64,000 nucleotides of DNA from the sequence record OR062947.1, one strand, 5' to 3'. This document shows, in pieces, positions 2,088 to 44,585 of the stretch; position 1 is the stretch's first letter; each line of letters opens with the position of its first letter. The position numbers and the translations under genes are program-made. A model generated the notes under the pieces. The model was not told the origin of the DNA and did not search any database. It saw only the letters and a program-made list of their open reading frames with translations. Origin of the DNA: Escherichia phage 348Ecol098PP.

Positions 2088-3110
2088 ATGGCTGAATGGA
2101 TAGATAATGAATTTGCTTATCGTGCGTTTTCTCACCTCCCTCGTTTTAGACAAATCAATAATTCAAGCACATTTAAATTAACATTTCGATGTCCAGTTTG
2201 TGGCGACTCTCAGACAGATGCAATGAAAGCTCGCGGATGGTATTACGGTGGTACTCCTGGTAATGTACATTGCTATAACTGTCAATACCACAATACAATT
2301 TCCGGATACTTAAAAGAGTATGATGAAGAGCTTTATCGCGAATATCTAATGGAAGTTCGTAAAGAAAAAGCTAGAATGGAACCAAAGATTGAAAAGGTTC
2401 CTGAAGCTAAGCCTGAGCCAGAGAAAAAGACTATAAATTCTTTGCCGTCTTGTTCTCGTCTGGACAAGTTGCCTGAAGAGCATCCTATTGTGAAATATGT
2501 TAAGTCTCGGTGTATTCCTAAAGAATCATGGAACAGATTATGGTTCACATTAGAATGGCCCAAATTGGTCAACAAGATTCAACCTGGTACGTATAAGAAA
2601 GAGATTCCCGAACCACGGTTAGTGATTCCTATTTTTAATAAAGATGGGAAGGCCGAGTCATTCCAAGGACGTGCACTTCGTAAAGATGCTCCTCAGAAAT
2701 ATATCACTATTAAAGCGTTTGAGTCTGCAACAAAAATTTATGGTGTTGAACGTGTTAAGGAAGGAGACGTCTGGGTAATGGAAGGCCCTATTGATAGTTT
2801 ATTCATACCCAATGCAATCGCTATTACAGGCGGCTCAATAGATTTAGACGTGGTACCATTTAAAGAACGTCGGGTATGGGTAATGGATAATGAACCTAGG
2901 CATCCGGATACTATAGCTCGCATGAAGCGATTAGTTGATGCAGGCGAACGTGTCATGTTCTGGGACCGAGCTCCATGGAGATCAAAGGATGTGAATGATA
3001 TGGTAATGAAAGAAAATGCAACACCACAAGAAATTTTAGAATATATGAAACAGAATATTTCAAGTGGGTTGCATGCTAAAATGAGATTATCTCGTTATTC
3101 GAAGATTTAA
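2088..3110 (+). CDS. 61: DNA primase gp61
   Basis: 340 aa; N-terminus WIDNEFAYRA..FKL.FRCPVCGDS..ARGWYYG and zinc-ribbon CxxC..CxxC closely match remembered T4 gp61. Confidence 0.9.
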   Translation: MAEWIDNEFAYRAFSHLPRFRQINNSSTFKLTFRCPVCGDSQTDAMKARGWYYGGTPGNVHCYNCQYHNTISGYLKEYDEELYREYLMEVRKEKARMEPKIEKVPEAKPEPEKKTINSLPSCSRLDKLPEEHPIVKYVKSRCIPKESWNRLWFTLEWPKLVNKIQPGTYKKEIPEPRLVIPIFNKDGKAESFQGRALRKDAPQKYITIKAFESATKIYGVERVKEGDVWVMEGPIDSLFIPNAIAITGGSIDLDVVPFKERRVWVMDNEPRHPDTIARMKRLVDAGERVMFWDRAPWRSKDVNDMVMKENATPQEILEYMKQNISSGLHAKMRLSRYSKI

Positions 3111-3304
3111 ACAAGCCCTATAATAGCAAAGGCCAAATCAACTACAGTATCCAATGGAACAGAAGGAACCATAACACCATGGGCAACTAACAATGGTGCA
3201 ATCCCGAAGTTCCATGAAATAATGCCACCTACAACTATTGCAGCGATAGCAGTTTTCTTTTTATTGCCTTTAATAGCGTTGATTAACGATGGAAGTTTAA
3301 ACAT
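3107..3304 (-). CDS. small hydrophobic protein on opposite strand, function unknown
   Basis: 65 aa minus-strand ORF between 61 and 56; strong aaggag SD upstream of its ATG; hydrophobic. Confidence 0.35.
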   Translation of the reverse strand: MFKLPSLINAIKGNKKKTAIAAIVVGGIISWNFGIAPLLVAHGVMVPSVPLDTVVDLAFAIIGLV

Positions 3305-3393: not shown

Positions 3394-3915
3394 ATGGCAC
3401 ACTTTAACGAATGTTCACAACTTATTTCTGGTGTTGATAAAGCAGAAGAAGCTTATTTTAATGCTCTGATTCACGAAGATAAAGACCCACTGCAGGTAAT
3501 GCTTGATATGCAGAAATCTTTACAGGTTCGTCTGGCAAATGACAAGCCTGAACATAACAAACATCCTGATGAATTGGCCACTGCTGGCGATGTTGTTGAT
3601 TGGCTGCGTAATCAGAAAGATTATATTGATGATGAATTCCGTGAACTGCTGACTTCACTTGGTGGTATGAGCAATGGTGAAAAAGCCGCCAGCAGTGTAT
3701 GGAAGCCGTGGAAGGCACAACATGCTGAATATCGAAATCGTCGTATCGATGAACTGTCTCCTGAAGACCAGCTTGAAATTAAATTCGAGATGATTGATAT
3801 CCTCCACTTTGTTCTGAATATGTTCCAAGGTCTGGGTCTTTCCGCTGAAGAAATCTTTAAACTTTACTACTTGAAAAACCAACACAACTTTGAACGTCAG
3901 GATAATGGTTACTGA
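3394..3915 (+). CDS. 56: dCTP pyrophosphatase (dCTPase/dUTPase) gp56
   Basis: ATG at 3394 (track start 3379 is TTG); MAHFNEC...DPLQVMLDMQ...FRELLTSLG...SPEDQLEIKFE..FHFVLNMF matches remembered T4 gp56. Confidence 0.85.
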   Translation: MAHFNECSQLISGVDKAEEAYFNALIHEDKDPLQVMLDMQKSLQVRLANDKPEHNKHPDELATAGDVVDWLRNQKDYIDDEFRELLTSLGGMSNGEKAASSVWKPWKAQHAEYRNRRIDELSPEDQLEIKFEMIDILHFVLNMFQGLGLSAEEIFKLYYLKNQHNFERQDNGY

Positions 3916-3921
3916 TTAAGT

Positions 3922-3929
3922 TATAAATA
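3922..3929 (+). promoter_or_regulatory. T4 late promoter TATAAATA upstream of soc
   Basis: exact TATAAATA about 30 nt upstream of the soc ATG. Confidence 0.6.
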
Positions 3930-3960
3930 CACCTGTAATTAAACAACAAAGGAGTTAATT

Positions 3961-4197
3961 ATGGGTGGTTACGTTAATATCAAAACCTTTACACGTCCGG
4001 CTGGTGAAGGTAAAGAAGTTAAAGGTATGGAAGTTTCTGTGCCGTTTGAGATTTATTCAAACGAACATCGGATTGCAGATTCTCATTACCAAATCTTTCC
4101 ATCAGAAAAGGCAGCTTATTCTACTGTAGTTTCTGATGCAGCTGACTGGAAAACTAAGAACGCTGCAATGTTTACCCCTACACCAGTAAGTGGTTAA
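3961..4197 (+). CDS. soc: small outer capsid protein Soc
   Basis: 78 aa; GYVNIKTF...HYQ.FPSEKAAYSTV matches remembered T4 Soc. Confidence 0.85.
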   Translation: MGGYVNIKTFTRPAGEGKEVKGMEVSVPFEIYSNEHRIADSHYQIFPSEKAAYSTVVSDAADWKTKNAAMFTPTPVSG

Positions 4198-4206
4198 ATA
4201 ATTTAA

Positions 4207-4230
4207 GGAATCCTTCGGGATTCCTTTTTT
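4207..4230 (+). terminator. rho-independent terminator
   Basis: ggaatccttcgggattcc hairpin (UUCG loop) followed by tttttt. Confidence 0.8.
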
Positions 4231-4239
4231 GTTTCTACA

Positions 4240-4270
4240 GTTTACAACCGCTAAAAACTGTGTTAAGATA
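4240..4270 (+). promoter_or_regulatory. T4-type early promoter
   Basis: gtttac at 4240, taagat -10-like about 18 nt downstream. Confidence 0.45.
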
Positions 4271-4297
4271 TTTTTACTTACTCAAGAGGAGAACAAT

Positions 4298-4525
4298 ATG
4301 TTAAATCGTTGGATTAAACCTAATAACACATTAGGTGCTTTGATTGCTCAAGAAGTTTCGTTGAAATACGGTCTTGGATATTACGATGATGTAGTCGTAC
4401 ACTCATTCATGATGGATGGTGAAGACGTCAAATTTAATGCCGAAATCCGTTGGGATGATGGTGGTGTTCGTTTTGTTCGAGGAACAATTAATGCTTACGA
4501 TGCTGAAGAAGTTGTTTGCTGTTAA
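4298..4525 (+). CDS. hypothetical protein
   Basis: ATG at 4298 with caagaggag SD; 75 aa. Confidence 0.5.
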   Translation: MLNRWIKPNNTLGALIAQEVSLKYGLGYYDDVVVHSFMMDGEDVKFNAEIRWDDGGVRFVRGTINAYDAEEVVCC

Positions 4526-33215: not shown

Positions 33216-36200
33216 TTATTCAATCCACTCGAATTTAACAGATTTATTCACAGGGTCTGGAATAATGCGGACATTACCAATCCTTAAGAAATCCCTTATT
33301 GTCAAGTTTCCGATTGTTGCATTATCAGAAGGTAAAGCACCAATATCAGAAGGTTGAGGAGGGTTTCCACCATCAAATACCTGAACAAAACTTGACCAAG
33401 AATTTTTAGTTTTCTGCCATGTACGTGTCCAACGGGTTGTACGTGCTTCTGGAGTTGTTGGATAAGTAATCCAATCTTGGTAAAGTGAATCAAGTGTATT
33501 ACCAAACTGAGTCAATGTACCAGGAGATTTAACTTCTTCGCCACGTTCTAAGTATGGAAGCCCGGTCACTTCATTAGTTTTTTCAACCATTTTAAAATAA
33601 CCTGGGAACTGGTTATAAGTAGCTGAATCGTTAATATCGATTGACCAGAATCCTACAGTATCAGATGTTGGCGCACGAGTATATAAATCAGATGTTTTAA
33701 TACCCTGAGAACGAATTCTCGAGTTAACTGTTAAACCACCTGAATTTATAGTAGCACCTTTGGCAATGATTAAGCCTTCAGCAATCGTTACTTGGCCAGA
33801 TACATTATTAATAGCTAAAGGACGTAATCCACTAAATCCACCAGTCTGGCCTCCTGGATGGGTTAGCAAAAAATAGGTATTAGTGCCATCATTGCGAATA
33901 AGGAATCCGTAATCACCACTAATTGCTCTGAAAGCATTTGCAGACTTGCTAATGAATTCACCATTGGCTGTAACTGAACTACCAAATGTTGCAACGCCAT
34001 TCGCATTTAAAGAACCTGAAGCGTTAACATTTATCGGCATCACAGTACCGTTAACGCTAAACGTTATATTCCCAGCTTTATTACGTTGAGAATAAAAGTG
34101 ATTAGACGTTTCATCGCCAACTTCAAATATCGTAGAACGACTTGTATCAGAACCACCAGCGAATTGGTTACCCCATACTCTGATATTCATAGTTTGAAAC
34201 GGGTTATTTCCAGTTTGTGGTCCTTTTTCAAATATCAAACGAGTTGAAGCACCTGTATTACGAATAGTAAATGTGCTATTAGCAGCTAAAGAACCACCAA
34301 ATTCACCAGTACTAGATGATACAAGAGGGGCACTCAGATTCGTTTGTTGGGTTAAGGTTAGTGAACCATTAACTGTCTGGGCGATGTCCCTACGAATGAA
34401 CTGAGATGAATCTAGACCATCCAATAAATTACTATCTACAGCTTTTGCTTTTAATGGCAGATAATTTGCTAATACACGGTTTAATTCATATGGTGATACT
34501 GCATAGCTATTTTTCTCATATGATTCTAATGGCTGTGTTGAACCTACCGTATCATTACCAATGAACGTAATTGAACCAGATGAAGTTTTAACAAAACCTC
34601 TTATCGCAGTAGTAGCAGCCCATGTTGGTTCGTTCTGGACAATCCATTTTAAATTCTTAGGAGATACAGCAGTATTAGCAGAAGTTCCTGTTATAGTTTC
34701 AGCCTGAGTAGCAACCTTAATTACGCCTTCAGACGTTTCAGTGGACTTAGTCCCTAAAAGCTTTTTAGGAGTAATAAGAACATCATCTAAAGTTCCTGCA
34801 TTAGATTCTGCCTGGGTCGCTACGCGAAGTGTACCACGTTGTGTTTCATTTGCTTTAGAAATATCAAGAGTATAATGGTTCCACAAGGTTCCTTCTTCAA
34901 TAAGTCCGGAATCAGAATTAACACTGGTACGGTCAGAAGAATCAAAATGAGTTTTAATTTTCAGTGGAGTCGAGATACGAGTATCATCAGTTCCAGTATC
35001 AAATTCAACTTGCGTAGCAAGTTCGGCTATGCCGGATAATCCTTCCGTAGCTTTCCTATCATTTAACGTCTTAGGCGTTACTGCACGTGTATAATCAGTC
35101 CCAGCATTAGTTTCTGCTTGCGTAGCAATTTCAATTAAACCAATACGTCCATCAGTAGAAGTTTTCTTATGTAGTGTTTCAGGAGTTACTACAGCGTGAG
35201 AATAACCTGCTTGTGATTGGCCAGCAATTACTTCACTATCGACAGCTAAAATTACTGCACCTTGTTGAGCATAAGTTGCTTTATATTGGTCAAGGGCTTT
35301 AGGAGAAATAGTTAAATTATTTACGGTTTTATTATAAACGTTAGTGCCTGCAGCCCCACGAGTTTCAGCAGGAGTGGCAGAAGTAGTTGATACATATTTA
35401 ACTATACCCGATAGTGTTTCGGAACCCTGACGTGCCTGTAATTTCTTAGGTGTAATAATCGTTGTGTCATCAAGACCAGCATCGGTTTCAGCCTGAGTAG
35501 CAATTTCAGCAAGACCGCGACGAGTTTCAGTTGCTGTACGCTCATTTAGTTTTTTAGGCGTAACAATAGTATCGTCCACAAATGCTGCTGTGGAATTCTG
35601 GTTAACTTGTGCTGTTGTAGCAATTTTAGCGATACCACGTCGAGCTTCAGTTGCTGTACGATTTGCCAACGTTTCAGGAGTAATAGCCACTTCTTTAGCT
35701 GGAGTATTCTCTAAATCAACATTTGCTTGCGCTTGAGTAGCAAGAGCAATAACACCTAAACGAGCTCGTGTAGCATCAGTTCCAGCATCAACACGTTCTA
35801 CCGTAGGGACATTCTGTTGCACAACCCAATAACGTGTACCAGCAACGGTGTCTTCGATATACGCTAATTCTAATACAGGAACATATGAAGTAGTGCCATT
35901 GAATTCTAGTTCAGTAACAGAGACCCATTGAGCATCAGGTGGATATTCAGAACGTTTAGGGAACTGAAGCAATGCAACAGAAGAAGCAATTGTATCACCT
36001 TCGGCAGCTTTAATTTTTACTGTTTGGCCTTTACGCATGTAGTTCATTGAAATTTTAACAGTGTCACCACTCAAAATTCCGGAAGGCAGCGTAAGATTAA
36101 TAGTTCCGGCTGTAGCGTTATTTGTGCCAAAAATAAGAACTTCTTCATTTGGACGAATATTTGAATCCGCACGGATAATACGAAGACGCGATTTCTGGTC

Positions 36201-37091
36201 GCCTTCCCATATACGCCATAAACTATTTGCAGCATCAAAAACAAAAAACGCGTCAGAGTCATTTCTGCCTTCGGCAATATGAGTCCCGACTTCACCAATA
36301 GACGTTGTATCATCAAATGTTTTAACAATTGTATGATACAGTGGGTTTAATTTATCTAAATCAACTAGGTGGATTATATCACCATTGTTAGCATTACGTG
36401 GAAGTGTAATGTTGATTGGCGCTGCACTAGTAAAACGACGAACGATAAAATCATTTGCTTGTGCTTGATATGGTGCCGCAGGTGTAACAGTGATTGATTC
36501 TTTACCATAATCTATAATATACATCTGCCACAAACGATTACTAAACACAAACAATAGTTGTGAACGCGGACGCGTCATTAAAACTGTACGAACCTGTTCA
36601 CCTCTAAAGTTTAAAATACTCTGCACAGACGCGTTAATCTGTACTTTAACTGTCCCGGTTCTTCCACCAATATCAGCCAAAACAATAGTGTCACCATCAA
36701 CCGGCGCATTTGGCAACGTGAAAACCATATCATTGCCGGCACCAGTGTTAACCGAAATAGATTCACCTGAAGAAAGTTGATAAGTCCCAGAAGCGACAGT
36801 TATCCATTGTGCATCAGTACGAACTGCACGCCATTGTAAAAGGTTAAATGCCCCGGAAGGAGACACGATATCATTTATTGCTTGATATAAACGGTTGTCA
36901 TAAAGAACAACAAATCCTTTGTTATATCCACGCGTAGAATCATATACTTGAACGGTGTTTTCTTGTACCAGGAAGTCAACGTTTACGCCATCAGTACCTA
37001 CTGTACGGTCGGCTAATGCTACGTTAACAATCTTGTCGCCACCGGCGTCCAGACCGTCTTCGGCTCTGAACTTACGTTTGATGTCGGCCAT
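33216..37091 (-). CDS. 34: long tail fibre proximal subunit gp34
   Basis: 1291 aa (T4 gp34 is about 1289 aa); first gene of the late fibre operon; late promoter immediately upstream. Confidence 0.9.
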   Translation of the reverse strand: MADIKRKFRAEDGLDAGGDKIVNVALADRTVGTDGVNVDFLVQENTVQVYDSTRGYNKGFVVLYDNRLYQAINDIVSPSGAFNLLQWRAVRTDAQWITVASGTYQLSSGESISVNTGAGNDMVFTLPNAPVDGDTIVLADIGGRTGTVKVQINASVQSILNFRGEQVRTVLMTRPRSQLLFVFSNRLWQMYIIDYGKESITVTPAAPYQAQANDFIVRRFTSAAPINITLPRNANNGDIIHLVDLDKLNPLYHTIVKTFDDTTSIGEVGTHIAEGRNDSDAFFVFDAANSLWRIWEGDQKSRLRIIRADSNIRPNEEVLIFGTNNATAGTINLTLPSGILSGDTVKISMNYMRKGQTVKIKAAEGDTIASSVALLQFPKRSEYPPDAQWVSVTELEFNGTTSYVPVLELAYIEDTVAGTRYWVVQQNVPTVERVDAGTDATRARLGVIALATQAQANVDLENTPAKEVAITPETLANRTATEARRGIAKIATTAQVNQNSTAAFVDDTIVTPKKLNERTATETRRGLAEIATQAETDAGLDDTTIITPKKLQARQGSETLSGIVKYVSTTSATPAETRGAAGTNVYNKTVNNLTISPKALDQYKATYAQQGAVILAVDSEVIAGQSQAGYSHAVVTPETLHKKTSTDGRIGLIEIATQAETNAGTDYTRAVTPKTLNDRKATEGLSGIAELATQVEFDTGTDDTRISTPLKIKTHFDSSDRTSVNSDSGLIEEGTLWNHYTLDISKANETQRGTLRVATQAESNAGTLDDVLITPKKLLGTKSTETSEGVIKVATQAETITGTSANTAVSPKNLKWIVQNEPTWAATTAIRGFVKTSSGSITFIGNDTVGSTQPLESYEKNSYAVSPYELNRVLANYLPLKAKAVDSNLLDGLDSSQFIRRDIAQTVNGSLTLTQQTNLSAPLVSSSTGEFGGSLAANSTFTIRNTGASTRLIFEKGPQTGNNPFQTMNIRVWGNQFAGGSDTSRSTIFEVGDETSNHFYSQRNKAGNITFSVNGTVMPINVNASGSLNANGVATFGSSVTANGEFISKSANAFRAISGDYGFLIRNDGTNTYFLLTHPGGQTGGFSGLRPLAINNVSGQVTIAEGLIIAKGATINSGGLTVNSRIRSQGIKTSDLYTRAPTSDTVGFWSIDINDSATYNQFPGYFKMVEKTNEVTGLPYLERGEEVKSPGTLTQFGNTLDSLYQDWITYPTTPEARTTRWTRTWQKTKNSWSSFVQVFDGGNPPQPSDIGALPSDNATIGNLTIRDFLRIGNVRIIPDPVNKSVKFEWIE

Positions 37092-37121
37092 TCGTTTTTC
37101 CTTTATTGTTTCAATAATACT

Positions 37122-37129
37122 TATTTATA
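37122..37129 (-). promoter_or_regulatory. T4 late promoter TATAAATA (minus strand) upstream of gene 34
   Basis: tatttata on the + strand about 30 nt upstream of the gene 34 start. Confidence 0.6.
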
Positions 37130-37132
37130 CCA

Positions 37133-37175
37133 GTTTACGCTTTCAAATGAGTGTGTTACTATAGTCAAGTTGACT
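37133..37175 (+). promoter_or_regulatory. early promoter for rnh with palindrome at the start region
   Basis: gtttac at 37133, tactat -10, then agtcaa-g-ttgact palindrome. Confidence 0.45.
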
Positions 37176-37194
37176 AACTGAACAAGAGGTTCAT

Positions 37195-38112
37195 ATGGAT
37201 TTAGAAATGATGTTGGATGAAGATTACAAAGAAGGTATTGCACTTGCTGACTTTAGTAACATTGCATTAGCAGCCGCGTTAAACAACTTTGAAGACGGTG
37301 ATAAAATTACTGTTCCAATGGTTCGACATGTAATCTTGAATTCAATTCGTAAAAACGTAGTGATGTTCCGTAAGCAAGGCTATACAAAATTTGTATTGTG
37401 TATGGATAATGCTACTTCAGGTTATTGGCGTCGTGACTTTGCTTACTATTACAAGAAAAATCGTAAAACCGATCGTGAAGCTTCAAAGTGGGATTGGGAA
37501 GGATATTTTACTGCACTCCATCAAGTTGTTGATGAGATTAAGAAATACATGCCATACGTTGTAATGGATATTGACAAGTATGAAGCGGATGACCATATTG
37601 GTGTATTAACTAAATATTTGTCATTAGCTGGTCATAAGGTATGTATTGTTGCATCAGATGGTGACTTTACACAATTACACAAATATCCTAACGTTAAACA
37701 GTGGTCGCCACCACAGAAAAAATGGGTTAAAATTAAGAACGGTTCTGCTGAAATTGATTGCATGACTAAAATTCTTAAAGGTGACCGTAAGGATGGTGTC
37801 GCATCGGTTCGAGTTCGTGGCGACTTCTGGTTTACCAGAGTTGAAGGTGAACGAACTCCAAGCATGAAAACATCAATTATTGAAGCAATTGCTAACGACC
37901 GTTCTCAAGCTGAAGTATTATTAAGTGCAGAAGAATATAAACGGTATCAAGAAAATTTGGTTCTCATTGATTTTGATTATATCCCTGATAATATTGCTTC
38001 AACCATTATAGAGTATTATAACTCATATAAACCACAACCTAAAGGCAAGATTTATTCATACTTTGTAAAATCTGGTCTTTCTAAATTAACAAGTGTAATT
38101 AATGAATTCTGA
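37195..38112 (+). CDS. rnh: RNase H (5'-3' exonuclease, FEN-1 family)
   Basis: 305 aa; MDLEMMLDEDYKEGI...SGYWRRDFAYYYKKNR...YEADDHI..L...SDGDFTQLHKYPNVKQWSP..KKWVKIK.GSAEIDCMTKILKGD matches remembered T4 RNase H. Confidence 0.9.
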   Translation: MDLEMMLDEDYKEGIALADFSNIALAAALNNFEDGDKITVPMVRHVILNSIRKNVVMFRKQGYTKFVLCMDNATSGYWRRDFAYYYKKNRKTDREASKWDWEGYFTALHQVVDEIKKYMPYVVMDIDKYEADDHIGVLTKYLSLAGHKVCIVASDGDFTQLHKYPNVKQWSPPQKKWVKIKNGSAEIDCMTKILKGDRKDGVASVRVRGDFWFTRVEGERTPSMKTSIIEAIANDRSQAEVLLSAEEYKRYQENLVLIDFDYIPDNIASTIIEYYNSYKPQPKGKIYSYFVKSGLSKLTSVINEF

Positions 38113-38119
38113 GGTAAAC

Positions 38120-38389
38120 ATGGCTAAGAAAGAAGCAGTTGAATTTAATCAAGATGTGCATGGTGAAGAACTGGCTAAACTAGTCAAGGAAGCTTCCGAT
38201 AACAAACTTAAAATTTCTGGTTATAATGAACTGATTAAAGACATTCGTACTCGTGCTAAAGAAGAGCTTGGTGTCGATGGAAAAATGTTTAATCGTTTGT
38301 TAGCTCTTTATCATAAAGACGCTCGTGACCAATTTGAAGCTGAAAATGAAGAGGTAGTCGAGCTTTATGACACAGTTTTCACTAAGTGA
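38120..38389 (+). CDS. dsbA: dsDNA-binding protein DsbA (late transcription enhancer)
   Basis: ATG at 38120 with gaggt SD; 89 aa; MAKKE.VEF...KLKISGYNELIKDIR.RAK.ELGVDGKMFNRLLALYHKD matches remembered T4 DsbA. Confidence 0.8.
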   Translation: MAKKEAVEFNQDVHGEELAKLVKEASDNKLKISGYNELIKDIRTRAKEELGVDGKMFNRLLALYHKDARDQFEAENEEVVELYDTVFTK

Positions 38390-38705
38390 TATTAAACCGG
38401 TTGATGAGGCCGGTTTATCTGAACAAGAATTAGCAGTAAAACACGATAAAGATGATATCGCTAAATTGCTTGACCGACAAGAAAACGGATTCATTATAGA
38501 ATCCATGGTTGAACAATTTGGTATGTCTTATTTAGAAGCAACAACTGCGTTCTTGGAAGAAAATTCTATTCCAGAAACACAATTTGCTAAATTTATTCCT
38601 ACAGGAATTGTTGAAAAAATTACAAGCGAAGCAATTGACGAAAACATGCTTCGCCCGTCAGTTGCTCGTGGTGAAAAAACTAATACGTTAGATTTCTTAT
38701 TATGA
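38367..38705 (+). CDS. 33: late transcription co-activator gp33
   Basis: 112 aa ORF between dsbA and the 59/32 region. Confidence 0.75.
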   Translation: MTQFSLSDIKPVDEAGLSEQELAVKHDKDDIAKLLDRQENGFIIESMVEQFGMSYLEATTAFLEENSIPETQFAKFIPTGIVEKITSEAIDENMLRPSVARGEKTNTLDFLL

Positions 38706-39385
38706 AATACGTTGTGTATAAAACTACCAATAAAATAAATGGTAAAATTTATATAGGCGTACACAAAAAACATAAAGAGAAAGATTGGTATATTGGATCA
38801 GGCCGCGCTATATTAGCGGCCAAAGCTAAATATGGACTAAAAAATTTTTATACCGAAATTCTTTATGAATATGATAATGACAAGGACGCCTATAAAAAAG
38901 AAGCAGAATTGGTTAATGAAGATTTTGTTTTGCGAACTGATACTTATAACTTAGTTCCCGGTGGTAAAGGTGGCCCTGGTAAAAAACAAAGTGATGAAGC
39001 TAAAAGGGCTATTTCACTTTCTAAATTAGGTAAACCTAGATCTGAAGAGACTAAGGCTAAAGTATCTAAAACCAGATTAGAAAGAAAAATACCATCCCCT
39101 AATAAGGGTAAGAAACTATCTGAAGCTCATAAATTAGCTTTGAGTAAAGTCCGAAAAGGGCGAAAAACGAATAAGCCGATGCCTGATTCAACCAAAGAAG
39201 CTCTTAGAATAGCAAATTCAAAGCCGCATTCTAAAGAAAGAACTATTAAAAAACAAAAACCTATAATTATTGATGGTATAAAATACTCATCATGCACAGA
39301 AGTTTCGGATGTTTTTAATATTTCTGCATCTCTAGTTACGTATAGACTTAAATCTTCAAAATGGCCTGGATGGAACTATGATTAA
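38702..39385 (+). CDS. free-standing GIY-YIG homing endonuclease (Seg-like)
   Basis: 227 aa; N-terminal YKTTNKINGKIYIGV GIY-YIG module; basic C-terminal DNA-binding tail; inserted between 33 and 59. Confidence 0.75.
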   Translation: MKYVVYKTTNKINGKIYIGVHKKHKEKDWYIGSGRAILAAKAKYGLKNFYTEILYEYDNDKDAYKKEAELVNEDFVLRTDTYNLVPGGKGGPGKKQSDEAKRAISLSKLGKPRSEETKAKVSKTRLERKIPSPNKGKKLSEAHKLALSKVRKGRKTNKPMPDSTKEALRIANSKPHSKERTIKKQKPIIIDGIKYSSCTEVSDVFNISASLVTYRLKSSKWPGWNYD

Positions 39386-40031
39386 AATACGCATGCCTCC
39401 TGACGGAGAACGTTATATTAACGGTAAATCAGTATATAAACTATACTTGATGTGCAAAAACCACTTTGGTGGTCGGTATGACGTAATCAAATATAACTGG
39501 TGCATGCGTGTTTCGGATAATGCGTATCAAAAACGTCGAGATAAATATTTCTTTGAAAAACTAGCAGAGAAATATAAATTGAAGGAACTCACCTTGATAT
39601 TCATAAGCAACTTAGTTGCTAACCAAGACGCATGGATTGGTGAGATATCAGACGCTGATGCATTAGTTTTCTATAGGGAATATATTGGACGACTAAAACA
39701 AGCTAAAGAGACGTTTGCTGAAGACGTACGTAACATCTACTATTTCAGTAAGAAAGTTGAAGTTAGTGCGCTTCAAGAGATATTTGATTATAATAATAAA
39801 GTTCAGTCGAGCTACATATTTAAATTGCTACAAAGCAATATAATTTCATTTGAAACTTTCTTATTGTTGGACTCGTTTTTGAATATTATAGATAAGCACG
39901 ACGAACTCACCGATAACTTAGTCTGGCAAAATTATTCTACCAAATTAAAGGCATATCGAAAAATACTTCAAATCGATAGAAATGCTGCTAAGAAATTGTT
40001 CATAGAAACAATCAAATCATGTAAGTATTAA
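39378..40031 (+). CDS. 59: helicase loader gp59
   Basis: 217 aa; MIK.RMP..GERYI.GKSVYKLYLM.K.H..G.YDVIKYNWCMRVSD.AYQKRRDKYFF.KL.EKYKLKEL matches remembered T4 gp59. Confidence 0.9.
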   Translation: MIKIRMPPDGERYINGKSVYKLYLMCKNHFGGRYDVIKYNWCMRVSDNAYQKRRDKYFFEKLAEKYKLKELTLIFISNLVANQDAWIGEISDADALVFYREYIGRLKQAKETFAEDVRNIYYFSKKVEVSALQEIFDYNNKVQSSYIFKLLQSNIISFETFLLLDSFLNIIDKHDELTDNLVWQNYSTKLKAYRKILQIDRNAAKKLFIETIKSCKY

Positions 40032-40060
40032 GCTTTATTTCTTGTGTGTTAAAATTACTT

Positions 40061-40068
40061 TATAAATA
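40061..40068 (+). promoter_or_regulatory. T4 late promoter TATAAATA upstream of gene 32
   Basis: exact TATAAATA at 40061-40068. Confidence 0.5.
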
Positions 40069-40078
40069 AAACATACCA

Positions 40079-40147
40079 GCTACGAGGTATAAGTGTCGTA
40101 GCAACCAACTGTAAATAAATTAAATAATCTAAATAAAGGTAAATATA
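40079..40147 (+). promoter_or_regulatory. gene 32 mRNA leader: hairpin plus A/U-rich unstructured tract (candidate gp32 translational operator)
   Basis: gctacga...tcgtagc stem (40079-40102) followed by an about 45-nt A/U-rich tract up to the AUG. Confidence 0.55.
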
Positions 40148-41050
40148 ATGTTTAAACGTAAATCTACTGCTGACCTCGCTGCTCAAATGGCTAAACTGAA
40201 TGGTAACAAAGGTTTCTCTTCAGAAGATAAAGGCGAATGGAAGCTGAAGCTAGATGCATCCGGTAATGGTCAAGCGGTAATTCGTTTCTTGCCAGCAAAA
40301 ACTGATGATGCACTACCATTTGCAATTCTTGTTAACCACGGTTTCAAGAAAAATGGTAAATGGTATATTGAAAATTGCTCTTCTACACACGGTGATTATG
40401 ACTCTTGTCCTGTATGTCAGTACATTAGTAAAAATGACCTGTACAATACTAACAAAAATGAATATTCTCAACTGAAACGTAAAACTTCTTATTGGGCTAA
40501 TATTCTGGTTGTTAAAGACCCTCAAGCTCCAGATAACGAAGGTAAAGTATTTAAATATCGTTTCGGTAAAAAGATTTGGGACAAAATCAATGCAATGATT
40601 GCTGTTGATACCGAAATGGGTGAAACTCCAGTTGATGTTACTTGTCCGTTTGAAGGTGCCAACTTCGTTCTGAAAGCTAAGCAGGTTTCTGGTTTTAGCA
40701 ACTATGACGAATCTAAATTCTTGGGTCAATCTGAAATTCCTCGTATTAATGACGAAGCATTCCAGAAAGAACTATATGACCAGATGGTAGATCTTACTAC
40801 TTTGACGGCTAAAGACCAGTTCAAATCCTTTGAAAAATTAAATGAATCTTTCGCTAAGGTTCTTGGTACTGCCGCTCTTGGTGGTGCAGCAGCCGCAGCA
40901 GCTTCTGTTGCAGATAAAGTTGCTTCTGACCTTGACGATTTTGATAAAGACATGGAAGCCTTTAGTTCTGCAAAAACTGAAGATGACTTCATGAGCTCTA
41001 CCTCATCCTCTGATGATGGTGACCTCGATGACCTGTTAGCTGGTCTATAA
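40148..41050 (+). CDS. 32: single-stranded DNA-binding protein gp32
   Basis: 300 aa; [16 protein letters not shown]...FLP; acidic C-terminal tail. Confidence 0.92.
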
Positions 41051-41056
41051 TAAATT

Positions 41057-41078
41057 GGGAGACTTCGGTCTCCCTTTT
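41057..41078 (+). terminator. rho-independent terminator
   Basis: gggagacttcggtctccc hairpin followed by tttt. Confidence 0.8.
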
Positions 41079-41105
41079 GAGTATCTGTAAATTGCCGAAA
41101 AAGTT

Positions 41106-42132: not shown

Positions 42133-42712
42133 ATTAGTATTCGCATGTGCTCCGACTAAAACAGTTGATGATAAGCTGGAATATGCTTTTGGATTAGGTG
42201 ATGGACTTCCATGGAAGCATATCAAACAAGATATGAGTAACTTTGTTGCTCGCACTAAAAACACTGTAATGGTTATGGGTGCTAAGACTTTTGCATCATT
42301 ACCTCGTCTACTCCAAGACCGTACTCATGTGGTTGTCACTGATATGGCCAGAAAACTGCCTAGGACTAAAACCAACGAACTTGCACGGTTCTATATCACC
42401 CAATCTGAATTTATTACCTTGGTAACAGGTGGTGAAATTAACCTGTTTAGCCCTGCAACTGATGTACCGTTTAAACTTTCTACTGAACATGTTGATGTAT
42501 CTGTTATCGGCGGTCCTGCTTTATTAAAACAAGCACTGCCTTATGCCGATGAAATCGTGATGACTAAAATCATTAAGAAATGTCGTGTTAATTCCGATGT
42601 TCAACTTGATAAAGATTTCGTCCAAGATATTATGCTTCAACGTTCTATGGTAGAATCTCATTACTACAGAATCGATGAACTCACCGAAATTACTGAGAGC
42701 GTGTATAAATGA
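42125..42712 (+). CDS. frd: dihydrofolate reductase
   Basis: ATG at 42125 (track ORF extended upstream to 42041); MLKLVFA... DHFR-like; directly upstream of td as in T4. Confidence 0.8.
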   Translation: MLKLVFACAPTKTVDDKLEYAFGLGDGLPWKHIKQDMSNFVARTKNTVMVMGAKTFASLPRLLQDRTHVVVTDMARKLPRTKTNELARFYITQSEFITLVTGGEINLFSPATDVPFKLSTEHVDVSVIGGPALLKQALPYADEIVMTKIIKKCRVNSDVQLDKDFVQDIMLQRSMVESHYYRIDELTEITESVYK

Positions 42713-43257
42713 AACAATACCAATACCTGATTAATGATATCCTAGAAAATGGTTATGAAACAGACGACCGTACAGGTACCGGCACTATTGCCCTGTTCGG
42801 AACTAAATTGCGATGGGATCTGACTAAAGGATTCCCTGCGGTAACAACTAAGAAATTAGCATGGAAAGCTTGTATTGCCGAGCTATTATGGTTCATGTCT
42901 GGTTCTACCAATGTTAATGATTTGCGTATTCGTACTCATGGTAGTCTTATTCAAGGTAAAACTATTTGGGACGACAACTATGAAAATCAGGCAAAAGACC
43001 TTGGATATCATAGCGGCGAACTTGGTCCTATTTATGGTAAGCAATGGCGTGATTTCGGCGGTGTAGACCAATTGGTCAAAACTATCGACCGTATTAAAGC
43101 TCTTCCTAATGATCGTCGTCAAATAGTTTCTGCATGGAACCCGGCCGAAATTGACCAAATGGCTCTTCCTCCTTGTCATATGTTCTATCAATTTAATGTG
43201 CGTAATGGTCATCTTGATTTACAATGGTACCAACGAAGTGTTGATGTTTTCTTAGGT
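42709..43257 (+). CDS. td: thymidylate synthase, exon 1
   Basis: N-terminal TS sequence ...QYL.LI.DIL.NG....DRTGTGT...FG...R.DL...FP..TTKKL; exon ends ...VDVFLG at ttaggt, where the intron begins. Confidence 0.85.
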
Positions 43258-44273
43258 TAATTTAGGCCTAGGTATAAGGCGACTTATACTTGTAATCTAT
43301 CTAAACGGGGAACCTCTCTAGTAGACAATCCCGTGCTAAATTGTAGGACTACCCTTTAATAAATACTTCTATATAAAAAGAGGTGTTTATGAAAAGCGGA
43401 ATTTATCAGATTAAAAACACTTTAAACGGTAAAGTGTATGTTGGAAGTGCTAAAGATTTTGAGAAAAGATGGAAGAGACATTTTAAAGACCTTGAAAACG
43501 GTGTTCACTCTTCTATAAAATTTCAAAGGTCTTTTAATAAACATGGTAATGTTTTTGAATGCTCTGTACTGGAAGAAATTCCATATGAGAAAGATTTGAT
43601 TATTGAACGAGAAAATTTTTGGATTAAAGAGCTAAATTCTAAAATTAATGGATATAATATTGCTGATGCGTCTTTTGGCGATGTGCTTTCAAATCATCCA
43701 TTAAAAGAAGAAATTGCTAAGAAACGAGCTGAAACTGTTAAAGCTAAGATGCTTAAGCTTGGTCCTGATGGTCGGAAAGCTCTTTATGGTAAACACGGAA
43801 GTAAAAATGGCCGATGGAATCCAGAAAACCACAAGTTTTGTAAATGCGGTGTTCGCATACCATCTTCGGCCGATACTTGTGGAAAGTGCCGAAAACGTTC
43901 AGGTGAAAATAACCCGTTCTTTAATCACAAACATTCAGAAAAAACTAAAACTAAACTATCTGAAAAGATGAAAGGCAAAAAGCCAGCTAACATCAAAAAG
44001 ATTTCATGCGATGGGATTATTTTTGAATGTGCAGCCGATGCGGCTAGACATTTTGAAATTTCATCAGGATTAGTTACTTACCGTGTAAAATCTGATAAGT
44101 GGAATTGGTTCTACATAAATGCCTAACGACTATCCCTTTAGGGAGTAGGGTCAAGTGACTCGAAACGATAGACAACTTGCTTTAACAAGTTGGAGATATA
44201 GTCTGCTCTGCATGGTGACATGCAGCTGGATATAATTCCGGGATAAGATTAACGACCTTATCTGAACATAATG
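43258..44273 (+). mobile_element. group I self-splicing intron in td (1016 nt) carrying I-TevI
   Basis: starts taatttaggcctaggtataaggcgacttatacttgtaatctatctaaacggggaacc (matches remembered T4 td intron 5' end) and ends ...aacataatg before the exon 2 ctaccg; 5' splice site follows U. Confidence 0.85.
43389..44126 (+). CDS. I-TevI: intron-encoded GIY-YIG homing endonuclease I-TevI
   Basis: 245 aa from ATG 43389 (track start 43383 is GTG); MKSGIYQIKNTLNGKVYVGSAKDFEKRWKRHFKDLE...SSGLVTYRVKSDKWNWFYINA matches remembered I-TevI. Confidence 0.9.
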   Translation: MKSGIYQIKNTLNGKVYVGSAKDFEKRWKRHFKDLENGVHSSIKFQRSFNKHGNVFECSVLEEIPYEKDLIIERENFWIKELNSKINGYNIADASFGDVLSNHPLKEEIAKKRAETVKAKMLKLGPDGRKALYGKHGSKNGRWNPENHKFCKCGVRIPSSADTCGKCRKRSGENNPFFNHKHSEKTKTKLSEKMKGKKPANIKKISCDGIIFECAADAARHFEISSGLVTYRVKSDKWNWFYINA

Positions 44274-44585
44274 CTACCGTTCAACATTGCCTCGTACGCT
44301 GCCTTGACGCATATTGTAGCGAAGATGTGTAACCTTATCCCAGGTGATTTAGTGTTCTCAGGCGGCAACACGCATATCTACAGCAATCATGTAGAACAAT
44401 GCAAAGAAGTTCTTCGTCGTGAACCTAAAGAGTTATGTTCTCTTGAAATTAATTGGCCTAGTAATTTTGAGAATTGGCCTACAAAAATCCAAATGGACTG
44501 GGTTACTGGAACGATGACATATTCTGATTTCGTTCTTAAAAATTACGAATCACATCCAGCTATCAAAGCTAAAATGGCGGTATAA
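44274..44585 (+). CDS. td: thymidylate synthase, exon 2
   Basis: continues LPFNIASYA...; exon 1 plus exon 2 give 286 aa, the T4 TS length. Confidence 0.85.
   Translation, partial: LPFNIASYAALTHIVAKMCNLIPGDLVFSGGNTHIYSNHVEQCKEVLRREPKELCSLEINWPSNFENWPTKIQMDWVTGTMTYSDFVLKNYESHPAIKAKMAV

Follow-up and report, generated by a model that had tools for sequence, protein, structure and literature searches.

A probable mobile GIY-YIG homing endonuclease gene at the junction of genes 33 and 59 in a Mosigvirus phage

Results

An intact endonuclease reading frame occupies the 33/59 junction

We analyzed a 64,000-nt stretch of the genome of Escherichia phage 348Ecol098PP (OR062947.1), hereafter the window, in which all positions are counted, and describe here a free-standing GIY-YIG homing endonuclease gene (HEG) that lies between gene 33, for the late-transcription co-activator, and gene 59, for the helicase loader (Table 1). 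The window is a Mosigvirus (RB69-like) genome, with the T4-type gene order gp34(-) / rnh / dsbA / 33 / HEG / 59 / 32. A first-pass annotation had described an intact open reading frame (ORF) of 227 aa at 38702-39385, and both its coordinates and its description proved exact. The ORF had also been placed between genes 33 and 59 with stop/start overlaps, and the ORF calls and the sequence bear this out: an ATGA at 38702-38705 is common to the gene 33 stop (TGA) and the HEG start (ATG), and gene 59 starts inside the 3′ end of the HEG, with which it overlaps by the final 8 nt (39378-39385). The translation-initiation region of gene 59 in the window is HEG coding sequence.

Table 1. Features of the rnh to gene 32 region, in window positions
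Feature	Position	Strand	Basis or remark
rnh	37195-38112		Pfam-assigned block
dsbA	38102-38389		longest ORF, 95 aa
gene 33 (late-transcription co-activator)	38367-38705	+	Pfam Trans_coact, 3.5e-26
predicted RNA hairpin, gene 33 3′ end	38666-38705	+	fold -11 kcal/mol; weak evidence
33/59 HEG (free-standing GIY-YIG, Seg-like)	38702-39385	+	intact ORF, 227 aa, ATG start
N-terminal GIY-YIG nuclease domain, aa 1-91	38702-38974	+	SegE_GIY-YIG match, aa 5-81; T4 Seg N-terminus similarity
segment absent from HEG-minus relatives, 676 bp	38706-39381	+	boundaries ambiguous within repeated (T)ATGA
basic linker with NUMOD3-type repeats, aa 92-182	38975-39247	+	Pfam NUMOD3; K/R content
C-terminal I-TevI-type helix-turn-helix DNA-binding domain, aa 183-227	39248-39382	+	Pfam I-TevI_DNA-bd; PDB 1i3j/1t2t
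gene 59 (helicase loader)	39378-40031	+	Pfam T4_Gp59_N, 1.9e-49; T4_Gp59_C, 2.1e-44
gene 32	40148-41050		Pfam-assigned block

The encoded protein has the architecture of a Seg-like endonuclease

Nearly the whole protein (residues 4-224) matches the NCBIfam model TIGR01453, 'group I intron endonuclease', with 75 bits against a curated cut-off of 56.05, and in PHROGs it falls into phrog_314, 'homing endonuclease' (1.2e-55). A phage protein search found homologues in hundreds of phages. At the C-terminus, residues 183-226 match Pfam I-TevI_DNA-bd (42.6 bits against a cut-off of 27, E 5.7e-11), and aa 175-225 match the structure of the I-TevI DNA-binding domain (PDB 1i3j/1t2t, E 5e-4). The linker between the two terminal domains is basic, with 28 K/R per 91 residues and an isoelectric point (pI) of 10.8; it matches Pfam NUMOD3 at residues 93-122 (20.8 bits, cut-off 20.4) and holds two clear NUMOD3-like repeats, SDEAKRAIS and SEETKAKVS. 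These matches, together with the similarity to T4 SegD described below, bear out the earlier reading of the ORF as a Seg-like GIY-YIG endonuclease with a basic DNA-binding tail.

In the N-terminal domain, the GIY and YIG motifs take the forms VVY (4-6) and YIG (17-19), about 10 residues apart. In a MAFFT alignment, T4 SegA-E all share Y6, Y17, G19, H21, K43, E67 and N83 with the HEG protein. Of these residues, Y6, Y17 and N83 align to Y6, Y17 and N90 of I-TevI, the last being the catalytic Asn of that enzyme, while E67 lies one column off its catalytic Glu, E75. AlphaFold run on the single sequence gave a poor model (mean pLDDT 49.3), in which residues 2-74 run, at low confidence, strand, strand, helix, helix, strand, helix.

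The 33/59 element is distinct from segG and closest to the SegD lineage

For comparison with T4, proteins were translated from the T4 record and searched with the HEG protein by blastp. The best T4 match was SegD, with 35.5% identity over the full length (E 3.7e-38). SegB, SegC and SegE, which Table 1 of PMC2988022 lists as active, matched the N-terminal domain at 43-48% identity (E 1.6e-24, 3.8e-26 and 2.4e-21, respectively), I-TevI matched over the full length at 27% identity (E 3.8e-9), and SegG gave no blastp match at E < 10. The next-best relatives in the databases are 34-37% identical and belong to the SegD type, from the 23/24 junction of T6 and Cronobacter phage SemperBestia. Since the nearest outside relatives are SegD-type genes of that junction, the 33/59 elements form a site-specific lineage of their own.

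SegD is a free-standing GIY-YIG endonuclease with the same three-part architecture, but its gene lies at 23/24 and not at 33/59, and at about 35% identity it is a paralogue of the window HEG rather than an orthologue. T4 segD is also antisense to 23 and 24 (PMC2988022), whereas the window HEG is co-oriented with, and coupled to, its neighbors. SegG (formerly 32.1) cuts T2 DNA in gene 32 and is a driver of marker exclusion. Its gene, like the window HEG, is a free-standing GIY-YIG HEG and a promoter-less cassette, lying only one gene away in the same cluster of replication genes (PMC2988022); unlike the window HEG, in which we found no promoter box, it contains the promoters of gene 32. I-TevI, encoded in the td intron, has the same domain order of GIY-YIG, linker and C-terminal helix-turn-helix and likewise belongs to TIGR01453, but the window HEG is not intron-encoded and its linker carries NUMOD3 repeats; no I-TevI zinc-finger motif was seen in this linker. 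SegH is similar in architecture and about 33-34% identical, but takes the place of mobC between nrdD and nrdG in several T-even phages.

T4 carries segG between 59 and 32 and not at 33/59 (Table 1 of PMC2988022, and the T4 record), as the first-pass annotation had stated, and genes 33 and 59 overlap directly in the T4 record, leaving this junction empty. Its further proposal of an independent insertion agrees with the different junction, the missing SegG match and the affinity to the SegD lineage; on these comparisons, the 33/59 HEG is of a different Seg lineage from segG and is an independent insertion. Orthology with SegG can be discarded, there being no blastp match and segG lying at 59/32 instead. 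Orthology with SegH, to which the GenBank record of Shf125875 points by labeling its 33/59 gene 'SegH-like', was also discarded in view of the identity of about 33% and the location of SegH between nrdD and nrdG. The Dhakavirus phage AnYang has HEGs on both sides of gene 59, the 33/59 homologue at 2486-3172 and a SegG-like 59/32 gene at 3833-4450 of its sequence (L005), and since it carries both, the 33/59 HEG and SegG are separate elements.

The junction is occupied or empty in close relatives from three genera

A megablast search with the region from dsbA to 32 returned 608 phage records, about 158 of them Mosigvirus records at 90% identity or more. The HEG is present in 28 of these, which include three GenBank/RefSeq duplicate pairs and represent about 25 distinct phages; the remaining Mosigvirus records align in two pieces and lack exactly the 676-bp insert. 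Comparison of the 33-59 junction, which had been suggested as a check, showed a clean empty junction in about 130 close relatives within Mosigvirus. The ORF is thus lacking from most relatives, the reverse of conservation in all of them with a non-nuclease function. The species Mosigvirus mar005p1 is itself mixed, with the insert in JK42 and none in APCEc01, MM02 and 172859UKE1.

In the empty junction of NRG-P0074, ...TTCTTATTATGA is followed directly by TTAAAATACGC (in longer form, ...GATTTCTTATTATGA by TTAAAATACGCATGCC), whereas in the window ...TTATTATGA leads into the insert, AATACG...GGAACTATGA, which is followed by TTAAAATACGC. The insert is bordered by a repeated (T)ATGA, which recreates the stop/start overlap on both sides. 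In the relatives with an empty junction, genes 33 and 59 overlap directly through ATGA. The window HEG lies between two intact ORFs and outside any intron or intein.

Homologues occupy the same junction in two further genera, with 51-57% identity to the window HEG. Of the roughly 49 Dhakavirus records that are at least 90% identical, 4 carry one (AnYang, IME540, LQ5), and in Winklervirus there are five records with (CHI14, CBH8, Kc304, LC53) and five without, at 96-98% identity. The 33/59 junction is strongly conserved across genera, and the T4 empty site is nearly identical. The Dhakavirus and Winklervirus HEGs (L005 and L004) start with ATGATTAA, which is also the first 8 nt of gene 59; the window HEG starts with ATGA-AATACG (38702-38716), compared to ATGATTAAAATACG in gene 59 (39378-39392). 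The boundaries of the insert thus fall within a stretch where the beginning of gene 59 is briefly duplicated. This duplication may be chance, or it may be a trace of the first insertion, had that been mediated by microhomology.

The gene already bears the label 'homing endonuclease' or 'Seg-like' in more than 20 GenBank records. In the collection of papers that was searched, none describes or characterizes an HEG at 33/59.

The gene is under purifying selection and its sequence is discordant with its flanks

Among six Mosigvirus copies of the HEG, the ratio of nonsynonymous to synonymous substitution (dN/dS) was 0.07-0.17, compared to 0.00-0.08 for gene 59; values of about 0.1 indicate that the HEG protein is under purifying selection. 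The ORF is full-length and free of indels in the window and nine further carriers, and the translation, checked for the window and five carriers, gave 227 codons in each. Only the AV116 copy is broken: a 1-nt insertion at nt 307 (601-1285 of L018) causes a +1 frameshift after codon 102, just past the nuclease domain, and the AV116 record annotates only the C-terminal 417 nt. This copy is either a decaying HEG or the product of a sequencing error.

We also compared the HEGs of ten carriers with their flanks, taken as rnh to 33 plus 59, and found the two sets of distances to be uncorrelated (r = 0.14). Comparisons among the window, PHB12, phi25-307 and PTK show 0-2 differences in the 672 nt of the HEG but 33-59 in the 2152 nt of the flanks; similarly, phage 55 and OLB35 are 1 nt apart in the HEG and 54 nt apart in the flanks. 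The window HEG is exactly that of PHB12, although the flanks are about 2% apart, and the tract of identity between the two genomes spans 878 bp (38658-39535), in which 19.6 differences would be expected at the flank rate (P ~3e-9). By its flanks, the window is nearest to the non-carriers NRG-P0074 and a20, and over the next 23 kb to G2469, NRG-P0074 and a20, which are all absent from the set of 28 carriers. Near-identical HEGs in diverged backgrounds are the pattern that would be expected of a recently spread element.

Neighboring loci vary in a manner of their own. In Mosigvirus relatives (L001-L013), gene 32 alleles form three groups separated by about 70-100 differences per 903 nt, and alleles of the 5′ part of gene 34 (35102-37091) form two groups separated by about 480 differences per 1990 nt; neither grouping is linked to the other or to the HEG. 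This independent assortment points to strong local mosaicism, which tempers the inference of mobility.

The HEG appears to be a promoter-less cassette

No T4 late-promoter box TATAAATA was found within or just upstream of the HEG, the nearest, at 40061, serving gene 32; no terminator-like hairpin was found between 33, the HEG and 59, and no recognizable Shine-Dalgarno sequence upstream of the HEG ATG. Sigma-70-like matches were in modest excess (22, against a shuffle mean of 15.2, sd 3.7), and by eye a MotA-box-like TGCTTCG lies at about 38646 without a proper -10 partner. Promoter-less cassettes and start/stop overlaps are known for several T4 seg and mob genes (PMC2988022), and the 33/59 HEG looks like another such cassette, translated by coupling to gene 33. 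Because the start of gene 59 lies inside the HEG, normal gp59 expression would return only if the insert were deleted precisely, and this embedding is a plausible mechanism of retention.

The predicted RNA hairpin at the 3′ end of gene 33 holds in its 3′ arm the AUG of the HEG or, in HEG-minus phages, that of gene 59. We considered that it might hide the HEG start codon and rejected this: 16 of 200 shuffled sequences reach as stable a fold (z = -1.5), so that the hairpin lacks statistical significance, and it is a gene 33 feature in all phages, with the same hairpin predicted in an empty-site phage.

Discussion

On our analysis, the ORF between 33 and 59 is likely to be a functional HEG of the T4 Seg / I-TevI type, both free-standing and mobile. 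This reading draws on its architecture, the conserved residues, purifying selection, the presence/absence polymorphism in three genera and the discordance between HEG and flanks. The N-terminal GIY-YIG domain would cut DNA, while the basic NUMOD3 linker and the C-terminal helix-turn-helix would give site-specific binding. The gene would be expressed as a cassette without a promoter of its own, inside a dsbA-33-59 transcription unit, with translation that is probably low and coupled to gene 33 through the ATGA, the position that gene 59 holds in HEG-minus phages. In a mixed infection, the enzyme would cleave both strands of a related genome with an empty junction, in or near 33/59, and recombinational repair from the HEG-carrying genome would copy the 676-bp insert, together with some flank, into the recipient. 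The outcome would be intronless homing and the local exclusion of a competitor's markers. We infer the nuclease activity, the position of the cleavage site, the translational coupling and the marker exclusion in this scheme; the name 'marker-exclusion element', which the first-pass annotation had used, would follow from T4 precedents.

Several observations weigh against this reading. The match of residues 5-81 to Pfam SegE_GIY-YIG reaches 22 bits, slightly short of the gathering score of 25. An equivalent of the I-TevI catalytic R27 could not be aligned in the HEG, where the region faces a gap, but this is weak evidence against activity because the region faces a gap in all Seg proteins aligned, the active T4 enzymes included; the invariant K43 may be a candidate substitute for R27. 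SegD, the T4 paralogue nearest to the HEG, appears in PMC2988022 as 'activity not determined'. Divergence of the HEG between genera (47-57% aa) equals that of the neighboring rnh and 33, so that ancient residence with repeated loss would also fit. T4-like phages recombine heavily, and ordinary mosaicism could explain part of the discordance between HEG and flanks. SegD reportedly cuts DNA without driving the homing of its own gene, in work attributed to Sokolov et al. 2018 (Virology). Finally, a haplotype scan of 37100-41100 (rnh to gene 32), in which 10 carriers were compared with 9 non-carriers, found no HEG-linked co-conversion haplotype: none of 350 polymorphic columns was fixed between the two groups, and the best Fisher p among them, 0.0055, is at chance level. 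Position 39482 was an early candidate for a flanking resistance or co-conversion marker, but it faded with more genomes.

Some of these points would suit an intact endonuclease that no longer homes and is retained for another reason, to which we assign a small probability. It might be kept because its 3′ end supplies the initiation region of gene 59, so that only precise deletion is tolerated, or it might serve the phage otherwise, for instance through cleavage of competitors at a distant site or a stimulating effect on recombination or amplification. The start of gene 59 does lie within the HEG, and embedded expression signals have been argued to favor HEG retention (PMC2988022); SegD has no demonstrated homing (PMC2988022, and reportedly Sokolov et al. 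2018), and in a 2026 paper (PMC13096335) SegB is described as aiding immune evasion by amplifying anti-defence loci. The empty result of the haplotype scan would also suit a non-homing enzyme. However, HEGs 0-2 of 672 nt apart in backgrounds about 2% diverged speak for recent spread and against passive retention; most relatives thrive without the gene, and its site-specific occupancy in three genera is what targeted homing would produce.

Slimmer still is the chance that the ORF is a relic in decay, which was once an HEG, has since become inactive and is drifting towards loss. Carriers are in the minority and the AV116 copy is frameshifted, as might be expected of decay, but that frameshift may have arisen in sequencing, the ORF is full-length in all other carriers that were examined (the window plus nine), dN/dS of about 0.1 reflects purifying selection, and all residues that are invariant in the active T4 Seg enzymes are present. 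The idea of a chance ORF, or of a mis-called gene without a product, has the AT-rich context and the missing Shine-Dalgarno sequence in its favor and nothing else; full-length family matches above curated cut-offs and purifying selection together already refute it, homologues in hundreds of phages speak against it too, and we regard its probability as negligible.

If the gene is a mobile HEG, the question of its target arises. In the usual account, HEGs that cut at a distance are protected from their own enzyme by a target site that differs in sequence. The characterized free-standing enzymes of T4 cleave hundreds to thousands of bp from their own genes (PMC2988022). For the 33/59 HEG, the sole constant difference between carriers and non-carriers in 37100-41100 is the interrupted junction itself, and because no flanking polymorphism separates the two groups, and the junction is conserved across genera, the recognition site may span the 33/59 junction and be destroyed by the insertion, as with the intron-encoded I-TevI. 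We put this forward tentatively, as a real possibility that is somewhat more doubtful than probable. A fuller version, which we think rather unlikely to hold in all its parts, would make the 33/59 HEG a distinct Seg lineage behaving like an intron enzyme: its site would be GATTTCTTRTT followed by ATGATTAA, that is, the gene 33 stop and gene 59 start, the insertion itself would confer immunity, homing would cross genera, and gp59 expression would be tied to the HEG. The home range would then cover Mosigvirus, Dhakavirus, Winklervirus and potentially T4. In such phages, the HEG would take over the coupling to gene 33, placing gp59 expression downstream of its own translation and tying an important replication gene to the retention of a selfish element.

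The significance of the element is modest. The gene itself is already in the databases as a homing endonuclease and is an ordinary selfish HEG of a kind found by the dozen in T4-like phages, and views on how such elements work are unchanged by it. It adds an uncharacterized lineage with the 33/59 insertion site to the T-even catalogue of free-standing HEGs, which rests mainly on T4 segA-G and mobA-E, plus SegH and Hef. Were the junction indeed the target, the 33/59 HEG would be a free-standing Seg enzyme with the target logic of an intron endonuclease, offering a modular I-TevI-like DNA-binding domain with a defined, conserved target. Natural pairs of carrier and non-carrier within one species (JK42 and either APCEc01 or MM02) would provide a clean system for experiments on homing or marker exclusion, and several Mosigvirus phages are candidates for therapy or biocontrol.

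Other features of the window

The start of dsbA is ambiguous. The longest ORF, from 38102, overlaps rnh, while most public records give a coding sequence of 270 nt that corresponds to 38120-38389, its start lying 18 nt further downstream.

A scan of the 64 kb with Rfam at gathering thresholds gave no match, including none to the td group I intron that is implied by a split td. This thymidylate synthase gene is interrupted within 42709-44585, with exon 1 at about 42709-43260 and exon 2 at about 44271-44585. The ORF at 43389-44126 in its intervening sequence is the orthologue of T4 I-TevI, with 88.6% identity, and constitutes a second GIY-YIG HEG of the window, about 4 kb from the one at 33/59.

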